Below, one piece after another: positions 1 to 5,615 of a DNA stretch of 5,615 nucleotides (positions within the stretch are counted from its first letter, which is position 1; each line of letters opens with the position of its first letter). Both the position numbers and the translations under genes were made by a program. A model generated the notes under the pieces. That model made no database searches. It was given only the letters and a program-made list of their open reading frames with translations, and was not told the DNA's origin. Origin of the DNA: a virus (lineage: Duplodnaviria > Heunggongvirae > Uroviricota > Caudoviricetes); the IMG/VR virus record IMGVR_UViG_2606217104_000006, positions 1-5,615 of that record; one strand, written 5' to 3'.

Positions 1-589
1 CGAGCTGTACCGGGATGGCCGGATAACGGAAGCCGCCTGTTGGGCTCACGCCCGCCGTAAAATCCACGATGTGCACGTTCGCACCCCGTCAGCCCTGACG
101 GAGGAAGCGCTGAAACGGATCGGCGAACTGTACGCCATCGAGGCAGAGATAAGGGGAATGACGGCGGAGCAGCGCCTTGCCGAACGTCAGTTGAAAACGA
201 AACCGCTGCTGAAATCCCTGGAAAGCTGGCTGCGTGAAAAGATGAAAACCCTGTCGCGACACTCAGAACTGGCGAAAGCGTTCGCATACGCCCTGAACCA
301 GTGGCCGGCGCTGACGTACTATGCGAACGATGGCTGGGCTGAGGCGGACAATAACATCGCTGAAAATGCGTTGCGGATGGTCAGTCTGGGCCGCAAAAAC
401 TACCTGTTCTTCGGTTCGGATCATGGAGGAGAGCGGGGAGCGCTGCTGTACAGCCTGATCGGGACGTGCAAACTGAACGGAGTGGAGCCAGAAAGCTACC
501 TCCGCTATGTCCTTGACGTCATAGCCGACTGGCCGATAAACCGGGTCGGCGAACTGCTCCCCTGGCGCGTAGCACTGCCGACTGAATAA
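1..589 (+). CDS. IS66-family transposase (TnpC/orf3 type), C-terminal ~195 codons; 5' end lies upstream of the window
   Basis: Open frame enters from the window edge (codon phase from nt 2) and ends at TAA 587-589. The translation contains [12 protein letters not shown] and [71 protein letters not shown], which I recognise as the conserved C-terminal region of IS66-family transposases. Family knowledge only, no search run. Confidence 0.88.
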
Positions 590-626
590 CACATCCCCGT
601 CAATACGGTTCTTGCTGCACGCTTAC
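1..626 (+). mobile_element. Right-hand end of an IS66-family insertion sequence (partial; the rest of the element is upstream of the window)
   Basis: The transposase stop at 589 is followed 37 bp later by a sequence whose reverse complement reads GTAAGCGTGCAGCAAGAACC (nt 626 back to 607). From memory this matches the GTAAGCG-type terminal inverted repeat of IS66-family elements. Immediately after nt 626 the sequence becomes phage tape-measure coding sequence. Confidence 0.75.
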
Positions 627-2079
627 GGCTGAGGCGGGTTCGGTGATCACCCAGTTCAGCCAGGCGCTGGCACAGGGTGTGTTGCGCGGTGAGGAATTTA
701 ATTCGGTCAATGAAAGTGGTGACCGGATCATTCGTGCACTGGCTGCAGGCATGGGCGTGGCCCGTAAAGATCTGAAGGCGATGGCGGACGATGGTCAACT
801 GACGGCGGATAAAGTCGTTCCTGCGTTAATCAGCCAGCTGGAGGTATTGCGTGATGAATACGCGGCCATGCCGGAAACGGTCTCTGACGGGATCACAAAG
901 GTGGAAAACGCCTTTATGGCCTGGGTGGGTGGTGCGAATGAGGCCAGCGGGGTGACGAAAACGCTCTCCGGCGTGCTGAACGGTGTTGCCGGACAGATTG
1001 ATAATGTGGCAACAGCCGTGGGGGCACTGGTTGCCGTCGGGGTTGCCCGGTACTTTGGCAATATGGCCTCCGGAGCGATGTCTGCCACGGCAGGACTTGT
1101 GACGGCTGCACGTAATGAAGTTGCACTGGCGGAAGCACAGTTCAGGGGAACGCAGATTGCCACGGCGCGGGCAAGGGCAGCCGTGTACCGTGCTCAGCAG
1201 GCCGTGGCGGCAGCCCGCGGGACGGAGATGCAGATTGCTGCAGAGGCCCGTCTGGCGGCCACACAGGAACGCCTGAACAGAAATATTGCTGCCAGAAGCG
1301 CCGCCCAGAATGCGCTGAACAGTACAACGGCGGTGGGCTCACGTCTGATGAGCGGTGCGCTGGGGCTGGTTGGTGGCGTACCCGGACTGGTGATGCTGGG
1401 GGCTGCAGCATGGTACACGCTGTACCAGAATCAGGAGCAGGCCAGGGAGTCTGCGCGCCAGTATGCACTGACGATAGATGAAATCGCGCATAAAACGCCG
1501 TCAATGTCTCTGCCTGAAGCCTCAGATAATGAAGGACGAACACGGGCGGCGCTGACAGAGCAGAACCGGCTGATTGATGAACAGGCCAGTCGGGTGAAAT
1601 CCCTGCAGGAAAAAATCGCAGGATATCAGTATGTTCTGGCGAACCCGGGCTGGACGACCGGTGACGGATTCATGATAAACCATCTGACATCGGTGAAGAC
1701 CGTAAATGCCCGTTTTCTGGATGCGGTGAATTTTGTGGCGGGCAATCCGGAAGCGGACCCGGAGCAGGAGCTGAGCGACCGCTGGGTGGTGGAGCAGATG
1801 TCAGAGCTGACGGCCATGACAGCCTCGTTTGTGCTGGCAACACCGACGGAGACGGACGGAGCGCTGTTTCCCGGTCGCATTATGCTGGCGAATACCTGTA
1901 TGTGGACCTACCGCTCTGATGAGTGTGGTTACACGGGCGGGGCTGTGGCGGATGAGTTCGATAAACCCACCACCGATATCCGTAAGGACAGATGCAGCAA
2001 GTGCATGCGCGGGTGTGAGATGCGCGGCATGGTGGCTAATTTTGGCGGTTTCCTTTCCATTAACAAACTTTCGCAGTAA
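627..2079 (+). pseudogene. Chimeric tail-gene remnant: tail tape-measure protein N-terminal fragment fused in frame to the C-terminal cysteine-rich domain of minor tail protein L (gpL-like); 5' end interrupted by the IS66 element
   Basis: Continuous ORF (ORF track 643-2079; coding phase is already open from nt 628). The N-terminal part (FSQALAQGVLRGEEFNSVNE...KDLKAMADDGQLTADKVVPALISQLE) resembles the conserved tape-measure N-terminal domain, followed by an Ala-rich coiled-coil region and a hydrophobic Gly-rich segment (LMSGALGLVGGVPGLVMLGAAAWY) typical of tape-measure proteins. From at least nt 1708 (ARFLDAVNFVAGNPEADPEQE...GRIMLANTCMWTYRSDECGY...DRCSKCMRGCEMRGMVANFGGFLSINKLSQ) it matches the C-terminal half of lambda gpL as I recall it, including the conserved Cys cluster. 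The junction lies roughly between nt 1560 and 1700 and cannot be placed exactly by eye. Confidence 0.75.
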
Positions 2080-2087
2080 TGGATTAT

Positions 2088-2112
2088 GCCCACCATCAGG
2101 TGGGTTTTTTGT
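2088..2112 (+). terminator. Rho-independent terminator downstream of the L remnant
   Basis: GC-rich inverted repeat CCCACC (2089-2094) / GGTGGG (2099-2104) with a 4-nt loop ATCA, followed by TTTTTT (2105-2110). The stop codon of the minus-strand Mnt-like gene (TCA at 2096-2098 on plus, read as TGA on minus) lies in the loop. Confidence 0.7.
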
Positions 2113-2470
2113 TGTCATCACCAAGATATTTCTGCTTATATTCCTCTGAAAGAGGAATTGATCTTTCAACCATGCTAATAAGTTTATCTACTTGTTTTTT
2201 CTGTTTTTCTATGATTTCTAAAAGTTGAGGTATAAGTTTTTCATGCTCGCTTTTATCATATTTTCTGTTTATCGCATCTAGTTGTTCTTTAAACTGCTGA
2301 ACGATAGGACCATCCTCCGGCCCAAAATCACGACAAACACGAATCGCCAACTCAAGCAGAGTGACAATCTCAGCATTCATAGAACGATTATTTTGTTTTG
2401 ATGACGCTTCAATTATTTTTTTTAATTCAACAGGAAGCCTAATCCGAAGTTGAGGGTCTTCTCTACTCAT
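2096..2470 (-). CDS. Mnt-like ribbon-helix-helix (Arc/MetJ superfamily) transcriptional repressor with an extended C-terminal coiled-coil region (124 aa)
   Basis: ORF track 2096-2470 minus. The N-terminus MSREDPQLRIRLPVELKKIIEASSKQNNRSMNAEIVTLLELAI has the beta-strand and two-helix pattern, including the N(G/N)RSMN(S/A)E motif, that I recall from P22 Mnt and Arc. The C-terminal half is charged and heptad-like (QQFKEQLDAINRKYDKSEHEKLIPQLLEIIEKQKKQVDKLISMVE), consistent with an oligomerisation coiled coil as in Mnt. It is transcribed divergently from the Arc-like/Ant-like genes. The Shine-Dalgarno is weak. Confidence 0.8.
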   Translation of the reverse strand: MSREDPQLRIRLPVELKKIIEASSKQNNRSMNAEIVTLLELAIRVCRDFGPEDGPIVQQFKEQLDAINRKYDKSEHEKLIPQLLEIIEKQKKQVDKLISMVERSIPLSEEYKQKYLGDDNKKPT

Positions 2471-2507
2471 ACCATTAGTCCAAACAGGAAAAATTCACAA
2501 TAAGTAA

Positions 2508-2536
2508 ATTATGCCCCACGGTGGGGTTGACTTCAA
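2508..2536 (-). promoter_or_regulatory. Predicted sigma70 promoter for the Mnt-like gene (Pmnt-like), arranged back-to-back with the plus-strand promoter
   Basis: On the minus strand: -35 TTGAAG (plus coordinates 2536-2531), 17-bp spacer, -10 CATAAT (plus coordinates 2513-2508). Its -35 overlaps the -35 of the plus-strand promoter by 2 bp, and the 13-bp palindrome 2514-2526 sits in its spacer. Confidence 0.45.
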
Positions 2537-2555
2537 TGACGCACGGTGTGACAAT
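2527..2555 (+). promoter_or_regulatory. Predicted sigma70 promoter for the Arc-like/Ant-like operon (Pant-like)
   Basis: -35 TTGACT (2527-2532), 17-bp spacer, -10 GACAAT (2550-2555) preceded by TG at 2547-2548 (extended -10). The predicted start near 2562 leaves a ~32-nt leader before the AAGGAG Shine-Dalgarno (2583-2588) and ATG 2594. Confidence 0.5.
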
Positions 2556-2593
2556 TTTGATTGCCCCACAGTGAGGCTATTTAAGGAGTGGAG

Positions 2594-2761
2594 ATGGAAA
2601 AAGCAAAAGACATGTATCAACGCAAGGTTCGTTTCCCAGAGGATGTAAGGAAGGCGATTGAAAGAAATGGAGAAAAAGAGTGTCGACAGTTCAACACGGA
2701 ACTTATTTATCAATTGAGAAAAGTGTACGGACTGATTGGAGAGAAGAATGCTAGGACATAA
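2594..2761 (+). CDS. Arc-like ribbon-helix-helix repressor (55 aa); not in the supplied ORF track, presumably below its length cutoff
   Basis: ATG 2594 is preceded by a strong Shine-Dalgarno AAGGAG (2583-2588, 5-nt spacing); TAA at 2759-2761. Translation: MEKAKDMYQRKVRFPEDVRKAIERNGEKECRQFNTELIYQLRKVYGLIGEKNART. The RKVRFPEDV strand followed by two short helices parallels P22 Arc (FNLRWPREV...NGRSVNSEIYQRV, recalled from memory). Small size and position immediately upstream of an antirepressor gene both fit. Confidence 0.7.
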   Translation: MEKAKDMYQRKVRFPEDVRKAIERNGEKECRQFNTELIYQLRKVYGLIGEKNART

Positions 2762-2830
2762 AAATAGCGAAGCCCGACAGTGCGCGAACACAAATCGGGC
2801 TTCTATGTCAGTAACTTCCAAGGAACTAAC
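2762..2830 (-). ncRNA. Predicted sar-like antisense RNA (~68 nt) complementary to the Arc-like/Ant-like intercistronic region and the Ant-like ribosome-binding site
   Basis: Minus-strand promoter with near-consensus elements inside the 5' end of the Ant-like gene (see next feature) predicts a start near nt 2830. A 9-bp perfect stem (2769-2777 / 2795-2803, 17-nt loop) is followed on the minus strand by GCUAUUUUUAU (plus 2768-2759), a plausible intrinsic terminator ending just after the Arc-like stop codon. The transcript would be antisense to the Ant-like Shine-Dalgarno (2819-2825). Confidence 0.4.
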
Positions 2831-2833
2831 GAA

Positions 2834-3754
2834 ATGAGTATAGCAACAGCGGTATCTACTATCAACGTGCCATTCCACGGCGCAGAGCTTTATGTCGTCA
2901 ATCACAACGGCGAACCGTACACCCCAATGAAACCTATCGTTGAGGGAATGGGTATGGATTGGGCTTCACAGTTTACAAAGTTAAAACAAAGATTTGCTAA
3001 AGGTATTGTGGAAATCGCAATACCTTCAGTTGGCGGTATGCAGACCATGATTTGCCTTGCTTTGCGTAAACTGAATGGTTGGCTCCAAACCATCAGTCCT
3101 AACAAAGTCCGCCCTGAAATCCGCGAGAAGGTAATCCAGTATCAGGAAGAGTGTGACGATGTGCTCTACGAGTACTGGACTAAAGGCCATGTGATTAACC
3201 CGCGCAAAGCTAAAAAGGCATTGCTGGGGAAAATCACCACTGAACAGCAGGAAGCCATTAAACAACTCGTCATGAGTCGCGGTCAGTCTCTGCCAAAAGA
3301 AAAACAGGCGAAGGCGATGATCACCATGTGGTCGTCACTGAAATCCCATTTTGGATGTTCGTACAAAGAAATTAGTGAGGAGCAGTTTACCGAAGCACTG
3401 TCACTTGCTGCTCGCGTTCCGCTTGAAGGTGAGTTCATTGGCAAACAAGAGAAGAAAACCAACGAGCTTTCTGCAAAAGAAGCAAACAGCCTTGTATGGT
3501 TATGGGATTATGCTAACCGCTCACAGGCATTATTCCGCGAACTGTATCCGGCGCTAAAGCAAATTCAATCGAACTATTCCTGCAGATGCTACGACTACGG
3601 TCATGAGTTCTCGTATGTTATTGGAATGGCGAGAGACGTTTTAATCAATCACACGCGAGATATTGATATTAATGAGCCAGACGGACCAACGAATCTTTCT
3701 GCATGGCTAAGACTTAAGAACAAAGAATTACCTCCTTCACTGCATCACTACTAA
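2834..3754 (+). CDS. Phage antirepressor (P22 Ant-like; P22 antirepressor N-terminal-type domain)
   Basis: ORF track 2780-3754, but the start is more likely ATG 2834, preceded by AAGGAAC (2819-2825); the GTG at 2780 lies inside a hairpin loop and has no Shine-Dalgarno. TAA at 3752-3754. The N-terminal region VPFHGAELYVVNHNGEPYTPMKPIVEGMGMDW...RPEIREKVIQYQEECDDVLYEYW matches my recollection of the N-terminal domain of P22-type antirepressors. It sits downstream of an Arc-like gene, as ant does in P22 immI. Confidence 0.72.
   Translation: MSIATAVSTINVPFHGAELYVVNHNGEPYTPMKPIVEGMGMDWASQFTKLKQRFAKGIVEIAIPSVGGMQTMICLALRKLNGWLQTISPNKVRPEIREKVIQYQEECDDVLYEYWTKGHVINPRKAKKALLGKITTEQQEAIKQLVMSRGQSLPKEKQAKAMITMWSSLKSHFGCSYKEISEEQFTEALSLAARVPLEGEFIGKQEKKTNELSAKEANSLVWLWDYANRSQALFRELYPALKQIQSNYSCRCYDYGHEFSYVIGMARDVLINHTRDIDINEPDGPTNLSAWLRLKNKELPPSLHHY
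2837..2865 (-). promoter_or_regulatory. Predicted promoter of the sar-like antisense RNA, located within the first codons of the Ant-like gene
   Basis: Minus-strand -35 TTGATA (plus 2865-2860), exactly 17-bp spacer, -10 TATACT (plus 2842-2837). Both hexamers are 5/6 matches to consensus. Confidence 0.5.
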
Positions 3755-3772
3755 CAGATTGCCAACGAAATG

Positions 3773-3796
3773 ACCCAGCTTCGGCTGGGTTTTTTA
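3773..3796 (+). terminator. Rho-independent terminator downstream of the Ant-like gene
   Basis: 7-bp stem ACCCAGC (3773-3779) / GCTGGGT (3784-3790) with a UUCG tetraloop (3780-3783), followed by TTTTT (3791-3795). Confidence 0.8.
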
Positions 3797-3808
3797 TCAG
3801 GAGTTCTC

Positions 3809-4546
3809 ATGCTCTATAGCAATATATTGGCGCACGCCCGGCGATGTGCGCCAGCGGAGTCGTGCGGCTTCGTGGTGAGAACGCCGGAGGGGGAAAGATA
3901 TTTTCCCTGCGTGAATATCTCCGGTGAGCCGGAGGATTATTTCCGGATGGCTCCGGAGGACTGGCTGCAGGCCAAAATGCAGGGTGAGATTGTGGCGCTG
4001 GTCCACAGCCACCCCGGTGGCCTGCCCTGGCTGAGCGAGGCCGACCGGCGGCTGCAGATAAAAAGTGCACTGTCCTGGTGGCTGGTCTGCCGGGGGGACA
4101 TTCATAAATTCCGCTGTGTGCCACATCTGACAGGACGGCGCTTTGAGCACGGGGTGACGGACTGTTACACGCTGTTCCGGGATGCCTACCATCTGGCGGG
4201 AATTGATATGCCGGATTTTGAGCGTGAGGATGACTGGTGGCGCAACGGTCAGAACCTTTACCTGGACAATATGGCGGTCACCGGCTTTTACCGGGTGCCC
4301 CTGTCCTCTGCACAGGCGGGCGATATCCTGCTGTGCTGCTTTGGCGCATCGGTGGCCAATCATGCCGCCATTTACTGCGGCAACGGTGAACTGCTTCACC
4401 ATCTGCCTGAACAACTGAGTAAACGGGAGAGGTATTCCGAAAAATGGCAACGACGAACGCATTCTGTCTGGCGTCACCGCCACTGGCACGCATCTGCCTT
4501 CACGGGGATTTACAACGATTTGGCCGCCGCCTCAGCCTGTACGTGA
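3809..4546 (+). CDS. K: Tail tip assembly protein K (lambda gpK-like; JAB/MPN plus NlpC/P60 domains)
   Basis: ATG 3809 with AGGAG (3799-3803) 5 nt upstream. The ORF-track start at 3770 would place the first 13 codons inside the preceding terminator hairpin, so it is rejected. The translation contains the JAMM-type motif VHSHPGGLPWLSEADR and an NlpC/P60-like Cys/His pair (GVTDCYTLF ... NHAAIYCG), and is collinear with lambda K as I recall it (ILAHARRCAPAESCGFVV...). Confidence 0.88.
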   Translation: MLYSNILAHARRCAPAESCGFVVRTPEGERYFPCVNISGEPEDYFRMAPEDWLQAKMQGEIVALVHSHPGGLPWLSEADRRLQIKSALSWWLVCRGDIHKFRCVPHLTGRRFEHGVTDCYTLFRDAYHLAGIDMPDFEREDDWWRNGQNLYLDNMAVTGFYRVPLSSAQAGDILLCCFGASVANHAAIYCGNGELLHHLPEQLSKRERYSEKWQRRTHSVWRHRHWHASAFTGIYNDLAAASACT

Positions 4547-5124
4547 ACACGGCAGCGGAAGCCATCCGGGCGCTGTCGTTACAGGTGCCGGGATTCCGCC
4601 GTCAGATGAACGAAGGCTGGTACCAGATACGTATTCGCGGTGAGGACACGGCACCGGAGGCGGTGTACGCCCGTCTTCACGAACCTCTGGGTGAGGGGGC
4701 GGTCATCCATATTGTGCCGCGACTGGCCGGAGCCGGAAAGGGCGGACTGCGGATTGTGCTGGGGGCGGCAGCCATCGTGGGCTCTTTCTTCACTGCCGGA
4801 GGCTCGATGGCGTTATGGGGTACAGCCCTGAGTGCCGGTGGTTTTTCTGCCACCACGATGCTGTTTTCACTGGGTGCCAGCATGATTCTGGGTGGTGTGG
4901 CCCAGATGCTGGCACCGAAGGCAAAAACACCGGATTACCGCGCAACGGATAACGGTAAACAGAACACGTATTTTTCGTCACTGGACAATATGATTGCCCA
5001 GGGTAACCCGATGCCGGTGCCTTACGGGGAAATGCTGGTTGGTTCACGACGGATATCCCAGGACATCAGCACCCGTGATGAAGGCGGGGGCGGAAAGGTC
5101 GTGGTTATCGGGCGGCAGGGGTAA
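4444..5124 (+). CDS. I: Tail tip assembly protein I (lambda gpI-like)
   Basis: ATG 4444, TAA 5122-5124. The translation (ASPPLARICLHGDLQRFGRR...VIHIVPRLAGAGKGG...GASMILGGVAQMLAPKAKTP...GKQNTYFSSLDNMIAQGNPMPVPYGEM) closely parallels lambda gpI as I recall it. Its 5' end overlaps the 3' end of K by 103 bp in a different frame; I recall a K/I overlap of about this size in lambda. Confidence 0.9.
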   Translation: MATTNAFCLASPPLARICLHGDLQRFGRRLSLYVNTAAEAIRALSLQVPGFRRQMNEGWYQIRIRGEDTAPEAVYARLHEPLGEGAVIHIVPRLAGAGKGGLRIVLGAAAIVGSFFTAGGSMALWGTALSAGGFSATTMLFSLGASMILGGVAQMLAPKAKTPDYRATDNGKQNTYFSSLDNMIAQGNPMPVPYGEMLVGSRRISQDISTRDEGGGGKVVVIGRQG

Positions 5125-5155
5125 AAAGAATAAAAAAATCCCGCAGAGTTGCGGA
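5125..5155 (-). terminator. Possible minus-strand intrinsic terminator in the I-J spacer
   Basis: Short GC-rich stem CCGCA (5141-5145) / TGCGG (5150-5154) with loop GAGT. On the minus strand it is followed by a run of 7 U (plus-strand A-run 5132-5138) and further U-rich sequence. The stem is only 5 bp, so this is tentative. Confidence 0.35.
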
Positions 5156-5294
5156 ACTGAGGGAGCGTTACGAAGATTAAGTGTAAGGAATTATTCTTAT
5201 GTCACGACAAAAAACATTAACGCAGAGAAATTATTAGCACCACAGTCAGTTTGTAAAAATGTGAAGATATTCAGAAGTTTTATTCAGTGATGAT

Positions 5295-5326
5295 ACAGGC
5301 ATCCTCAGGGATGCCTGTTGTTTTTG
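5295..5326 (+). terminator. Strong rho-independent terminator 34 bp upstream of the J start codon
   Basis: Perfect 10-bp stem ACAGGCATCC (5295-5304) / GGATGCCTGT (5309-5318) with loop TCAG, followed by TGTTTTT (5319-5325). Confidence 0.7.
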
Positions 5327-5359
5327 TGCGTAACAGTTATCACAGTAAAGGGTGAGACA

Positions 5360-5615
5360 ATGGGCAAAGGTGGCGGCAAGGCGCACACACCGCGCGAGGC
5401 GAAGGACAATCTCAAATCCACGCAGATGATGAGTGTGATTGATGCGATTGGTGAGGGACCGATAGAAGGCCCGGTGAAAGGCCTGCAGAGTATTCTGGTG
5501 AACAAAACCCCGCTGACGGACACGGACGGTAATCCCGTGATACACGGTGTGACGGCGGTCTGGCGCGCCGGGGAGCAGGAGCAGACACCACCGGAAGGCT
5601 TTGAGTCCTCCGGAG
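5360..5615 (+). CDS. J: Host specificity / tail tip central fibre protein J (lambda gpJ-like), N-terminal 85 codons; continues beyond the window
   Basis: ATG 5360 preceded by AAAGGGTGAG. Translation MGKGGGKAHTPREAKDNLKSTQMMSVIDAIGEGPIEGPVKGLQSILVNKTPLTDTDGNPVIHGVTAVWRAGEQEQTPPEGFESSG closely matches the N-terminus of lambda J as I recall it (MGKG..KGHTPREAKDNLKSTQ...GPIEGPV...RAGEQEQTPPEGFESSG). Open to the window end. Confidence 0.92.
   Translation, partial: MGKGGGKAHTPREAKDNLKSTQMMSVIDAIGEGPIEGPVKGLQSILVNKTPLTDTDGNPVIHGVTAVWRAGEQEQTPPEGFESSG

Follow-up and report, generated by a model that had tools for sequence, protein, structure and literature searches.

The window analysed here is a 5,615-nucleotide stretch of tailed-phage DNA (positions 1 to 5,615 of the IMG/VR virus record IMGVR_UViG_2606217104_000006; Caudoviricetes), and within it lies a small divergent regulatory locus in which two putative repressor genes flank three related palindromes. 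The leftward mnt-like gene, an open reading frame (ORF) at 2096..2470 on the minus strand, encodes a protein of 124 amino acids (aa) with an N-terminal ribbon-helix-helix (RHH) domain and a helical C-terminal domain. The rightward arc-like gene (2594..2761, plus strand; 55 aa, RefSeq coordinates in agreement) is the first gene of an operon that continues with ant (2834..3754, plus strand), which encodes a P22-type antirepressor of 306 aa; RefSeq annotates all three genes. Between the two small genes, three CACNGTG palindromes centred at 2520, 2545 and 2570 extend across two back-to-back promoters. We interpret segment 2494-2578, with moderate confidence, as the promoter-operator region of an immunity-I (immI) module of the P22 type.

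Each palindrome forms the middle of a 17-bp site without assigned strand. Site 1, TGCCCCACGGTGGGGTT (2512..2528), is built on the core CCCCACGGTGGGG at 2514-2526, a 6+1+6 palindrome; site 2, TGACGCACGGTGTGACA (2537..2553), on CACGGTG at 2542-2548; and site 3, TGCCCCACAGTGAGGCT (2562..2578), on CCCCACAGTGAGG at 2564-2576. A repeat finder returned the three as one family of 15-nt copies at 2512, 2537 and 2562, spaced 25 + 25 bp apart and 73-87% identical, and their common consensus is TGnCnCACnGTGnGnCA; site 2 matches the 17-mer consensus with 0 mismatches. A promoter scan predicted a rightward promoter, Pant (2527..2555, plus strand), with the -35 hexamer TTGACT at 2527-2532, a 17-bp spacer and the -10 hexamer GACAAT preceded by TG, which makes TGTGACAAT at 2547-2555 an extended -10. 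The same scan predicted a leftward promoter, Pmnt (2508..2536, minus strand), with the -35 hexamer TTGAAG at 2536-2531, a 17-bp spacer and the -10 hexamer CATAAT at 2513-2508, so that the two -35 hexamers share 2 bp (2531-2532). Transcription would then start near 2562 on the plus strand and near 2501 on the minus strand. Relative to these predicted starts, site 1 lies within the Pmnt spacer (about -19 for Pmnt and -42 for Pant), site 2 covers the Pant spacer and extended -10 (about -17 for Pant and -44 for Pmnt), its right half doubling as that extended -10, and site 3 is centred at about +8 of Pant. The first-pass annotation of this DNA had placed the palindromes at the same positions and proposed overlapping rightward and leftward promoters; every one of its palindrome coordinates was confirmed in the sequence, and both promoters, with their 2-bp overlap, were recovered by the scan.

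The cluster of three palindromes is not explained by chance. Not one of 5000 shuffles that preserved dinucleotides (0/5000) placed three CACNGTG motifs inside 60 bp, and the 17-mer TGNCNCACNGTGNGNCA, allowing up to 2 mismatches, has 4 matches in the window against 0.34 expected. The count of CACNGTG over the whole window is by itself not significant (4 against 1.6 expected, with 12/200 shuffles reaching 4). Conservation is stronger evidence than these shuffle statistics. We scanned IMG/VR with both repressors, which gave 160 loci, and the 80 arc-anchored loci among them yielded 57 distinct intergenic sequences; all three sites are present in 57/57 of these homologous regions. In the alignment of the 57 variants nearly every base is kept at 2489-2556 and 2563-2577, and the stretches 2471-2488, 2557-2562 and 2578-2590 are scrambled. 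The sites are also kept more strictly than third codon positions, which vary in both flanking genes.

Sequence logos gave the shared site consensus TGnCnCACsGTGnGnCA, within which each site has features of its own. Site 1 (ATGCCCCACsGTGGGGTTGACA) is almost invariant from -9 to +11, its right flank being the Pant -35; site 2 is TGACGCACGGTGTGACA and nearly invariant throughout the family; and site 3 follows TG(C/T)C(C/T)CACsGTGGGGCA. Site 2 forms a distinct subclass with purines at -6 (A in 54/57) and -4 (G in 55/57) and a central G in 57/57, whereas sites 1 and 3 carry pyrimidines at -6 and -4. At the centre of sites 1 and 3 the 57 variants have G or C and more distant relatives A or T, and since any of the four is tolerated, this free centre fits an uncontacted dyad centre. 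The Pant hexamers are invariant in relatives, as are the Pmnt -10 (ATTATG on the plus strand) and the TTG of its -35 (CAA, 2534-2536). The more distant relatives are L017, the L029 group and L056, in which about one in four of the N-terminal Arc-like residues compared is changed. In them, conservation is confined to the four promoter hexamers and the three sites, so that no further conserved element is left over to act as a separate Arc operator. Strong purifying selection acts on exactly the promoter hexamers and the three sites. The earlier proposal that the palindromes are operators agrees well with this pattern, in which they are conserved base for base amid scrambled neighbouring DNA, and we regard the three sites as very probably operators of the neighbouring RHH repressors.

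The spacing of the sites is a different matter. An exact 25-bp spacing had been described for all three, and it holds between sites 1 and 2 in 57/57 relatives; between sites 2 and 3 it ranges from 24 to 27 bp (24 bp, n=16; 25 bp, n=4; 26 bp, n=34; 27 bp, n=3). The site 1-2 distance is fixed because two 17-bp promoter spacers flank -35 hexamers that overlap by 2 bp. The idea, raised earlier as a question, that half-helical-turn phasing between operators matters finds no support, because the site 2-3 spacing drifts over 4 bp among relatives.

Two other stretches were considered as further operators and set aside. The 20-bp block TTCACAATAWGTAAATTATG (2494-2513) is clade-specific: distant relatives retain only AAATTATG of it, which is the Pmnt -10. 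The fourth match to the consensus, TGATACACGGTGTGACG (5538-5554), falls within tail gene J, is missing from the related prophage and is most likely a chance occurrence. It has 11 contiguous bases, CACGGTGTGAC, in common with operator site 2.

Two RHH repressors had been expected to flank the palindromes, and the proteins bear this out as far as sequence comparison reaches: Mnt-like and Arc-like products both appear to be encoded upstream of a P22-type Ant. The Mnt-like protein scores 30.6 bits on the Pfam Arc model (cutoff 20.4), with its N-terminal 40 residues corresponding to the Arc/Mnt-type RHH; RefSeq labels it 'Arc family DNA-binding protein', and its closest PDB relative is P22 Mnt (1MNT; residues 3-43, E 0.0015). 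Its first residues, MSREDPQLRIRLP (13 residues), are identical in all 57 variants and align residue for residue with MARDDPHFNFRMP of P22 Mnt over the N-terminal arm and strand, with two arginines kept and with His6 replaced by Gln and Asn8 by Arg. Ant is 56% identical to P22 Ant over its full length (E 3e-119) and carries the Pfam domains P22_AR_N (9.4e-45) and P22_AR_C (3.8e-29). A profile built from 24 homologues of the Arc-like protein matches P22 Arc in register over residues 4-41 (E 2.5e-4); Asn11 of P22 Arc is Lys in the Arc-like protein. The strand MYQRKVRFP is almost invariant in relatives, and Q9, R13, P15 and the helix-B motif FNTE and QLRK are invariant. Among its sequence matches in PDB there was no Arc chain. 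A word-indexed protein search with the Arc-like query returned relatives of at least 65% identity only, and among these there were no intermediate specificity classes.

Beyond the RHH head, the Mnt-like proteins of the 57 variants are mosaic, with several unrelated types of C-terminal domain and lengths of 86, 91, 117, 124 and 143-151 aa, which suggests that oligomerisation modules have been freely exchanged on one DNA-binding head. The C-terminal domain of the window's protein is unrelated to that of P22 Mnt, whose tetramerisation region has no detectable similarity in it. The gene is also broken in several relatives. It is frameshifted after codon 9 in TL-2011b (L160; MSREDPQLRDQTSR*) and its product is truncated at 20 aa in L123, whereas the near-identical relatives L161-L163 encode an intact 143-aa protein; in the Shiga toxin 2 (Stx2) phage 1717 the mnt-like gene is unannotated, and it too looks interrupted, from about residue 29 onward. 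It seems that the maintenance repressor has been lost repeatedly.

Comparison with P22 gives the sites a reference point. The P22 record annotates Pant at 14793-14821 (plus strand), Pmnt at 14826-14798 (minus strand), Oarc at 14798-14818 and Omnt at 14822-14844. P22 Omnt is GGTCCACGGTGGACC, reading ATAGGTCCACGGTGGACCTGT across the annotated operator. It has the 9-bp core CCACGGTGG in common with site 1, from which it differs only at ±5 and ±6 (GT in P22, CC in the window). With site 3 it has in common the half-cores CCAC and GTG, the centre being A in the window and G in P22. The centres of site 3 and of Omnt each lie 43 bp from the first base of the Pant -35, and the window aligns with P22 without a gap from that -35 through the palindrome. 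Given this equal distance and gap-free alignment, site 3 is the counterpart of Omnt in both position and sequence. The switch had been described as analogous to Omnt/Oarc of P22 with a different operator sequence. The second half of that description does not hold, given that Omnt contains the CCACGGTGG core of site 1 and that site 3 keeps its half-cores and position; the first half was too cautious, the region from the Pant -35 to Omnt being homologous rather than analogous.

The recognition strands add a second line of comparison. The DNA-facing strand positions are Q-R-R in the Mnt-like and Q-K-R in the Arc-like protein of the window, H-N-R in P22 Mnt and Q-N-R in P22 Arc. Two arginines common to P22 Mnt and the Mnt-like protein accompany the common CACGGTG core, and the altered residues, His6 to Gln and Asn8 to Arg, accompany the altered outer operator positions. 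His6 of Mnt reportedly reads an outer operator position, a result attributed to Youderian, to Knight and Sauer and to Stormo. Site 3 is, in our judgement, quite likely bound by the Mnt-like protein. That site 2 is the preferred, private site of the Arc-like protein we consider an even call.

These elements can be assembled into a switch that would work much as in P22. Two sigma-70 promoters would fire apart, Pmnt giving the Mnt-like repressor and Pant the Arc-like repressor together with Ant, and, with P22 Mnt and Arc as a guide, two RHH dimers would bind each 17-bp dyad site. In a lysogen, Mnt-like protein on site 3, at +8 of Pant, would keep arc and ant off as P22 Mnt does on Omnt, and occupancy of site 3 would also relieve Pmnt of competition from the stronger Pant at the overlapping -35 region. 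Surplus Mnt-like protein would occupy site 1 in the Pmnt spacer and limit its own synthesis, a feature without P22 counterpart. After infection Pant would fire and the Arc-like protein would build up until, on site 2 in the spacer where P22 has Oarc, it turned the operon down, with a Sar-like antisense RNA further restraining ant translation. We favour this P22-like assignment (Mnt-like protein on sites 3 and 1, Arc-like protein on site 2) as the more probable arrangement, though by no means a secure one.

Several observations weigh against it. The Arc-like protein is a borderline RHH protein, at 19.2 bits just below the Pfam Arc cutoff of 20.4; hhalign gives it a probability of only 43% against P22 Arc; and its AlphaFold2 (AF2) monomer, which places helices at 16-25 and 27-44 where an RHH has them, is of low confidence (predicted local distance difference test, pLDDT, 62.7). 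Site 3 of the window departs from a perfect dyad, having A both at its centre and at +4, and in a near-identical relative (L090) CAT replaces CAC in this site. Part of the conservation of site 2 is due to the promoter, because its right half doubles as the extended -10. Covariation assigns no protein to a site, because both repressor strands and all three sites are invariant, and pattern scans for natural hybrids (site 2 combined with a P22-type Omnt, or the P22 Oarc core with a window-type palindrome) returned none. The prophage itself is damaged: a fragment of an IS66-family transposase occupies 71-589, and ORF 643-2079 fuses the N-terminal part of a tape-measure protein to the C-terminal 128 residues of tail protein L, so the switch may be idle in this copy. 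No paper on this variant of immI was found in the literature library searched.

The alternative that survives best keeps all three sites as operators and changes who uses them. Here both RHH repressors would use every site but rank them differently by affinity, in the manner of CI and Cro at OR1-OR3 of phage lambda. The Mnt-like protein would fill site 3, then site 2, from where it could stimulate Pmnt at about -44, and last site 1, for self-repression; the Arc-like protein would follow another order and shut both promoters. The DNA-facing positions of the two proteins are nearly alike (Q-R-R and Q-K-R), and one consensus fits all three sites, site 2 without a mismatch. Moreover, no other family-wide conserved element offers itself as a private Arc operator. 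The geometry resembles the lambda right operator (OR), with three 17-bp sites centred 24-27 bp apart between divergent promoters, and Stx2 phage 1717 pairs two repressors of the same triad (K-N-R) with a single repeat family. P22 Mnt bound at Omnt stimulates Pmnt, and Omnt lies at about -45 from the Pmnt start. The triads of P22 Mnt and Arc are nearly the same too, yet their operators are quite different, so likeness of triads is a weak predictor, and the distinct, conserved subclass formed by site 2 fits a private specificity equally well. We hold sharing of sites, as the alternative to a private Arc-like site at site 2, to be a tentative option, and the full tripartite operator to be rather unlikely. 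If it were true, the bistable logic of lambda CI/Cro-OR1-3 would have been reproduced with an unrelated DNA-binding fold, and the two unrelated operators of P22 would be one layout among several in the family.

The preferred assignment would also change if the Arc-like protein took no part at these sites. All three palindromes would then serve the Mnt-like protein, and the Arc-like protein would have its target elsewhere, work on RNA or protein, or have ceased to be a DNA-binding repressor. This would suit the presence of the core of P22 Omnt, a Mnt operator, in all three sites, the borderline score of the Arc-like protein on the Pfam model and the absence of a TAGA-type Oarc. It sits poorly with the strong purifying selection on the Arc-like protein (the invariant Q9, R13, P15, FNTE and QLRK), with its register with P22 Arc and with the lack of any other conserved non-coding element in the module on which it could act, and we consider it improbable. 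That the palindromes bind nothing, being chance repeats, remnants of a duplication in place or, in the case of site 3, which would be transcribed at about +1 to +16, a 5'-terminal 6-bp RNA hairpin that stabilises the arc-ant mRNA and whose C-to-T variants at -4 and -6 in relatives retain G·U pairs, is very improbable, because sites 1 and 2 would be untranscribed from either promoter on the predicted starts and yet are the most strictly conserved, the shuffles never produced the cluster, the homologous P22 site is annotated as a Mnt-binding operator in the P22 genome record, and an RNA role for site 3 is compatible with an operator role.

Downstream of the operators, the assigned P22-like layout is continued by a candidate sar-like antisense RNA between arc and ant (2766..2830, minus strand), which would start near 2830, span the ant ribosome-binding region and terminate at a GC-rich hairpin with a U-run behind it. 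In the fold computed for 71 nt of the minus strand (2830-2760) there are two hairpins (-28.3 kcal/mol, z = -5.06), arranged as in P22 sar, and the hairpin GAAGCCC...GGGCTTC aligns with the P22 sar terminator. The Rfam sar model (RF00262) places its match at exactly 2766-2830 on the minus strand with 15.6 bits, below the gathering score of 43; P22 sar itself scores 97.8 bits. A candidate Psar-like promoter (2837..2865, minus strand; TTGATA-17-TATACT with a TG extension) lies inside the first codons of ant and is the best promoter match of the region (10/12), and its -10, TATACT, occupies the same alignment columns as the annotated P22 Psar -10. A palindrome within the sar-like hairpin (CCCCACGGTGG in TL-2011b, CCCGACAGTG in the window) is not kept in other relatives or in P22, and we set it aside as a coincidence in a GC-rich stem.

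As a whole, the immI module forms a self-contained insert in a lambda-like E. coli prophage, where it separates tail genes L and K. Its borders are marked by terminator-like hairpins on the plus strand. The left one (2088..2105) comes directly after tail gene L and shares bases with the 3' end of the mnt-like gene, and the right one (3772..3791) follows ant and overlaps the first codons of the longest K ORF (3770-4546); in a related prophage, gene K as annotated starts further downstream than 3770. Window positions 1708-5072 alone align, at 89.9% identity, with an intact-looking prophage of E. coli Res13-Lact-PEA14-20 (L002). That prophage is integrated in the lambda attachment region, beside the bio operon and ybhB, and two genes for type III effectors, espS and espJ, lie downstream of its tail fibre genes (seen at L002 24018-26100). 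Tail genes I and J are 237 bp apart in the window (5125-5361), compared with about 60 bp in the related prophage. Of two hairpins in this gap, one (about 5299-5320) is followed by a T-run, and the stretch could be a small insert, a small RNA or a terminator.

The family to which the module belongs is widespread and is nearly absent from isolated phages, and it is a variant of a well-known system, not a new kind. Arc-like clusters were found in Escherichia, Klebsiella, Salmonella, Enterobacter, Citrobacter, Raoultella, Cronobacter, Buttiauxella, Kluyvera and Rosenbergiella, and one protein cluster alone is present on 941 contigs. Among 50,697 phage records, the window's specificity class occurs in TL-2011b only, and this exact copy was found in only 2/5426 complete E. 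coli genomes. Fourteen of the 80 related loci lie between L and K and 3 beside a P22-type gene 16 or tailspike gene. Within the DNA examined, a P22-type Ant was undetected in 38/80 loci, and in loci such as L029 and L056 another N-terminus opens the gene that follows arc; one mnt/arc regulatory cassette thus appears to drive different cargo genes.

P22 immI is a textbook case, through Mnt and Arc, of how RHH proteins recognise DNA and of how an antirepressor is controlled. The window offers what looks like a natural change of specificity within it, the substitutions at positions 6 and 8 of Mnt standing alongside operator GT to CC at ±5 and ±6. Because the strand and the outer operator positions change on an unchanged core, rules of RHH recognition become directly testable. 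What the three-site layout adds is that the maintenance repressor is predicted to repress its own gene. Resident prophages, among them ones that carry Stx or effector genes, can be induced in trans by antirepressors, and the setting of this switch therefore bears on prophage induction in pathogenic E. coli.

Among known systems, P22 immI is the closest. The locus is homologous to it, with two small repressor genes, a candidate antisense RNA and an antirepressor gene in the same order: an mnt-type gene leftward, then arc and ant rightward, with the antisense element between the last two. The roles of Mnt, Arc and sar in P22 have been described (PMC11016777, PMC2629481), essentially only the P22 version of immI has been studied (PMC2629481), and there too the region is a self-contained insert in a late structural operon (PMC2629481); in the sense of that paper, the module in the window is an 'ant moron'. 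The operators are where the two modules part. P22 has one Omnt and one unrelated 21-bp Oarc, whereas the window has three related palindromes; no TAGA-type Oarc occurs in the window, its place in the Pant spacer being taken by TGACGCACGGTGTGACA, and neither site 1 nor the leftward promoter in whose spacer it lies has a P22 counterpart. In P22, Pant and Pmnt are fully superimposed, each -35 over the other's -10, whereas the pair in the window overlaps only at the -35 hexamers, Pmnt being shifted about 25 bp leftward. Unlike P22 sar, the Sar-like RNA of the window falls below the Rfam threshold, with the Psar -10 and the terminator hairpin conserved. The site of insertion differs as well, between L and K of a lambda-like siphovirus here and between gene 16 and the tailspike gene in the podovirus P22.

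In layout, the locus also recalls lambda OR, where OR1, OR2 and OR3 lie between PRM and PR and are common to CI and Cro. Both have three dyad sites of 17 bp that belong to a single family and are centred about 24-27 bp from one another, and divergent promoters serve a lysogeny-maintenance repressor on one side and, on the other, a lytic-side operon that opens with a second small repressor. One site lies in the maintenance promoter and two lie on the opposing promoter. The likeness is one of layout only and without homology, the proteins being RHH here and helix-turn-helix there, and the module governs an antirepressor rather than the whole lytic programme.

Stx2-converting phage 1717 and phage CUS-3 provide a third comparison. 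Both have divergent mnt-like and arc-like genes with short intergenic repeats upstream of a P22-type ant, and in phage 1717 the ant module occupies the same L-K slot as in the window. The beta-strand residues are KFNLRFP and KLNLRLP in phage 1717 and QVNLRLP and KTLRMP in CUS-3. The repeats are of the ATGGTGCCAT type in phage 1717 (L164 2050-2170) and of the ATGCGTACC type in CUS-3 (L165 2000-2115), whose mnt-arc intergenic region contains ACTATsWATGCGTACC twice. Both modules belong to specificity classes separate from that of the window, and these classes could be mined for the rules by which RHH proteins recognise their operators.

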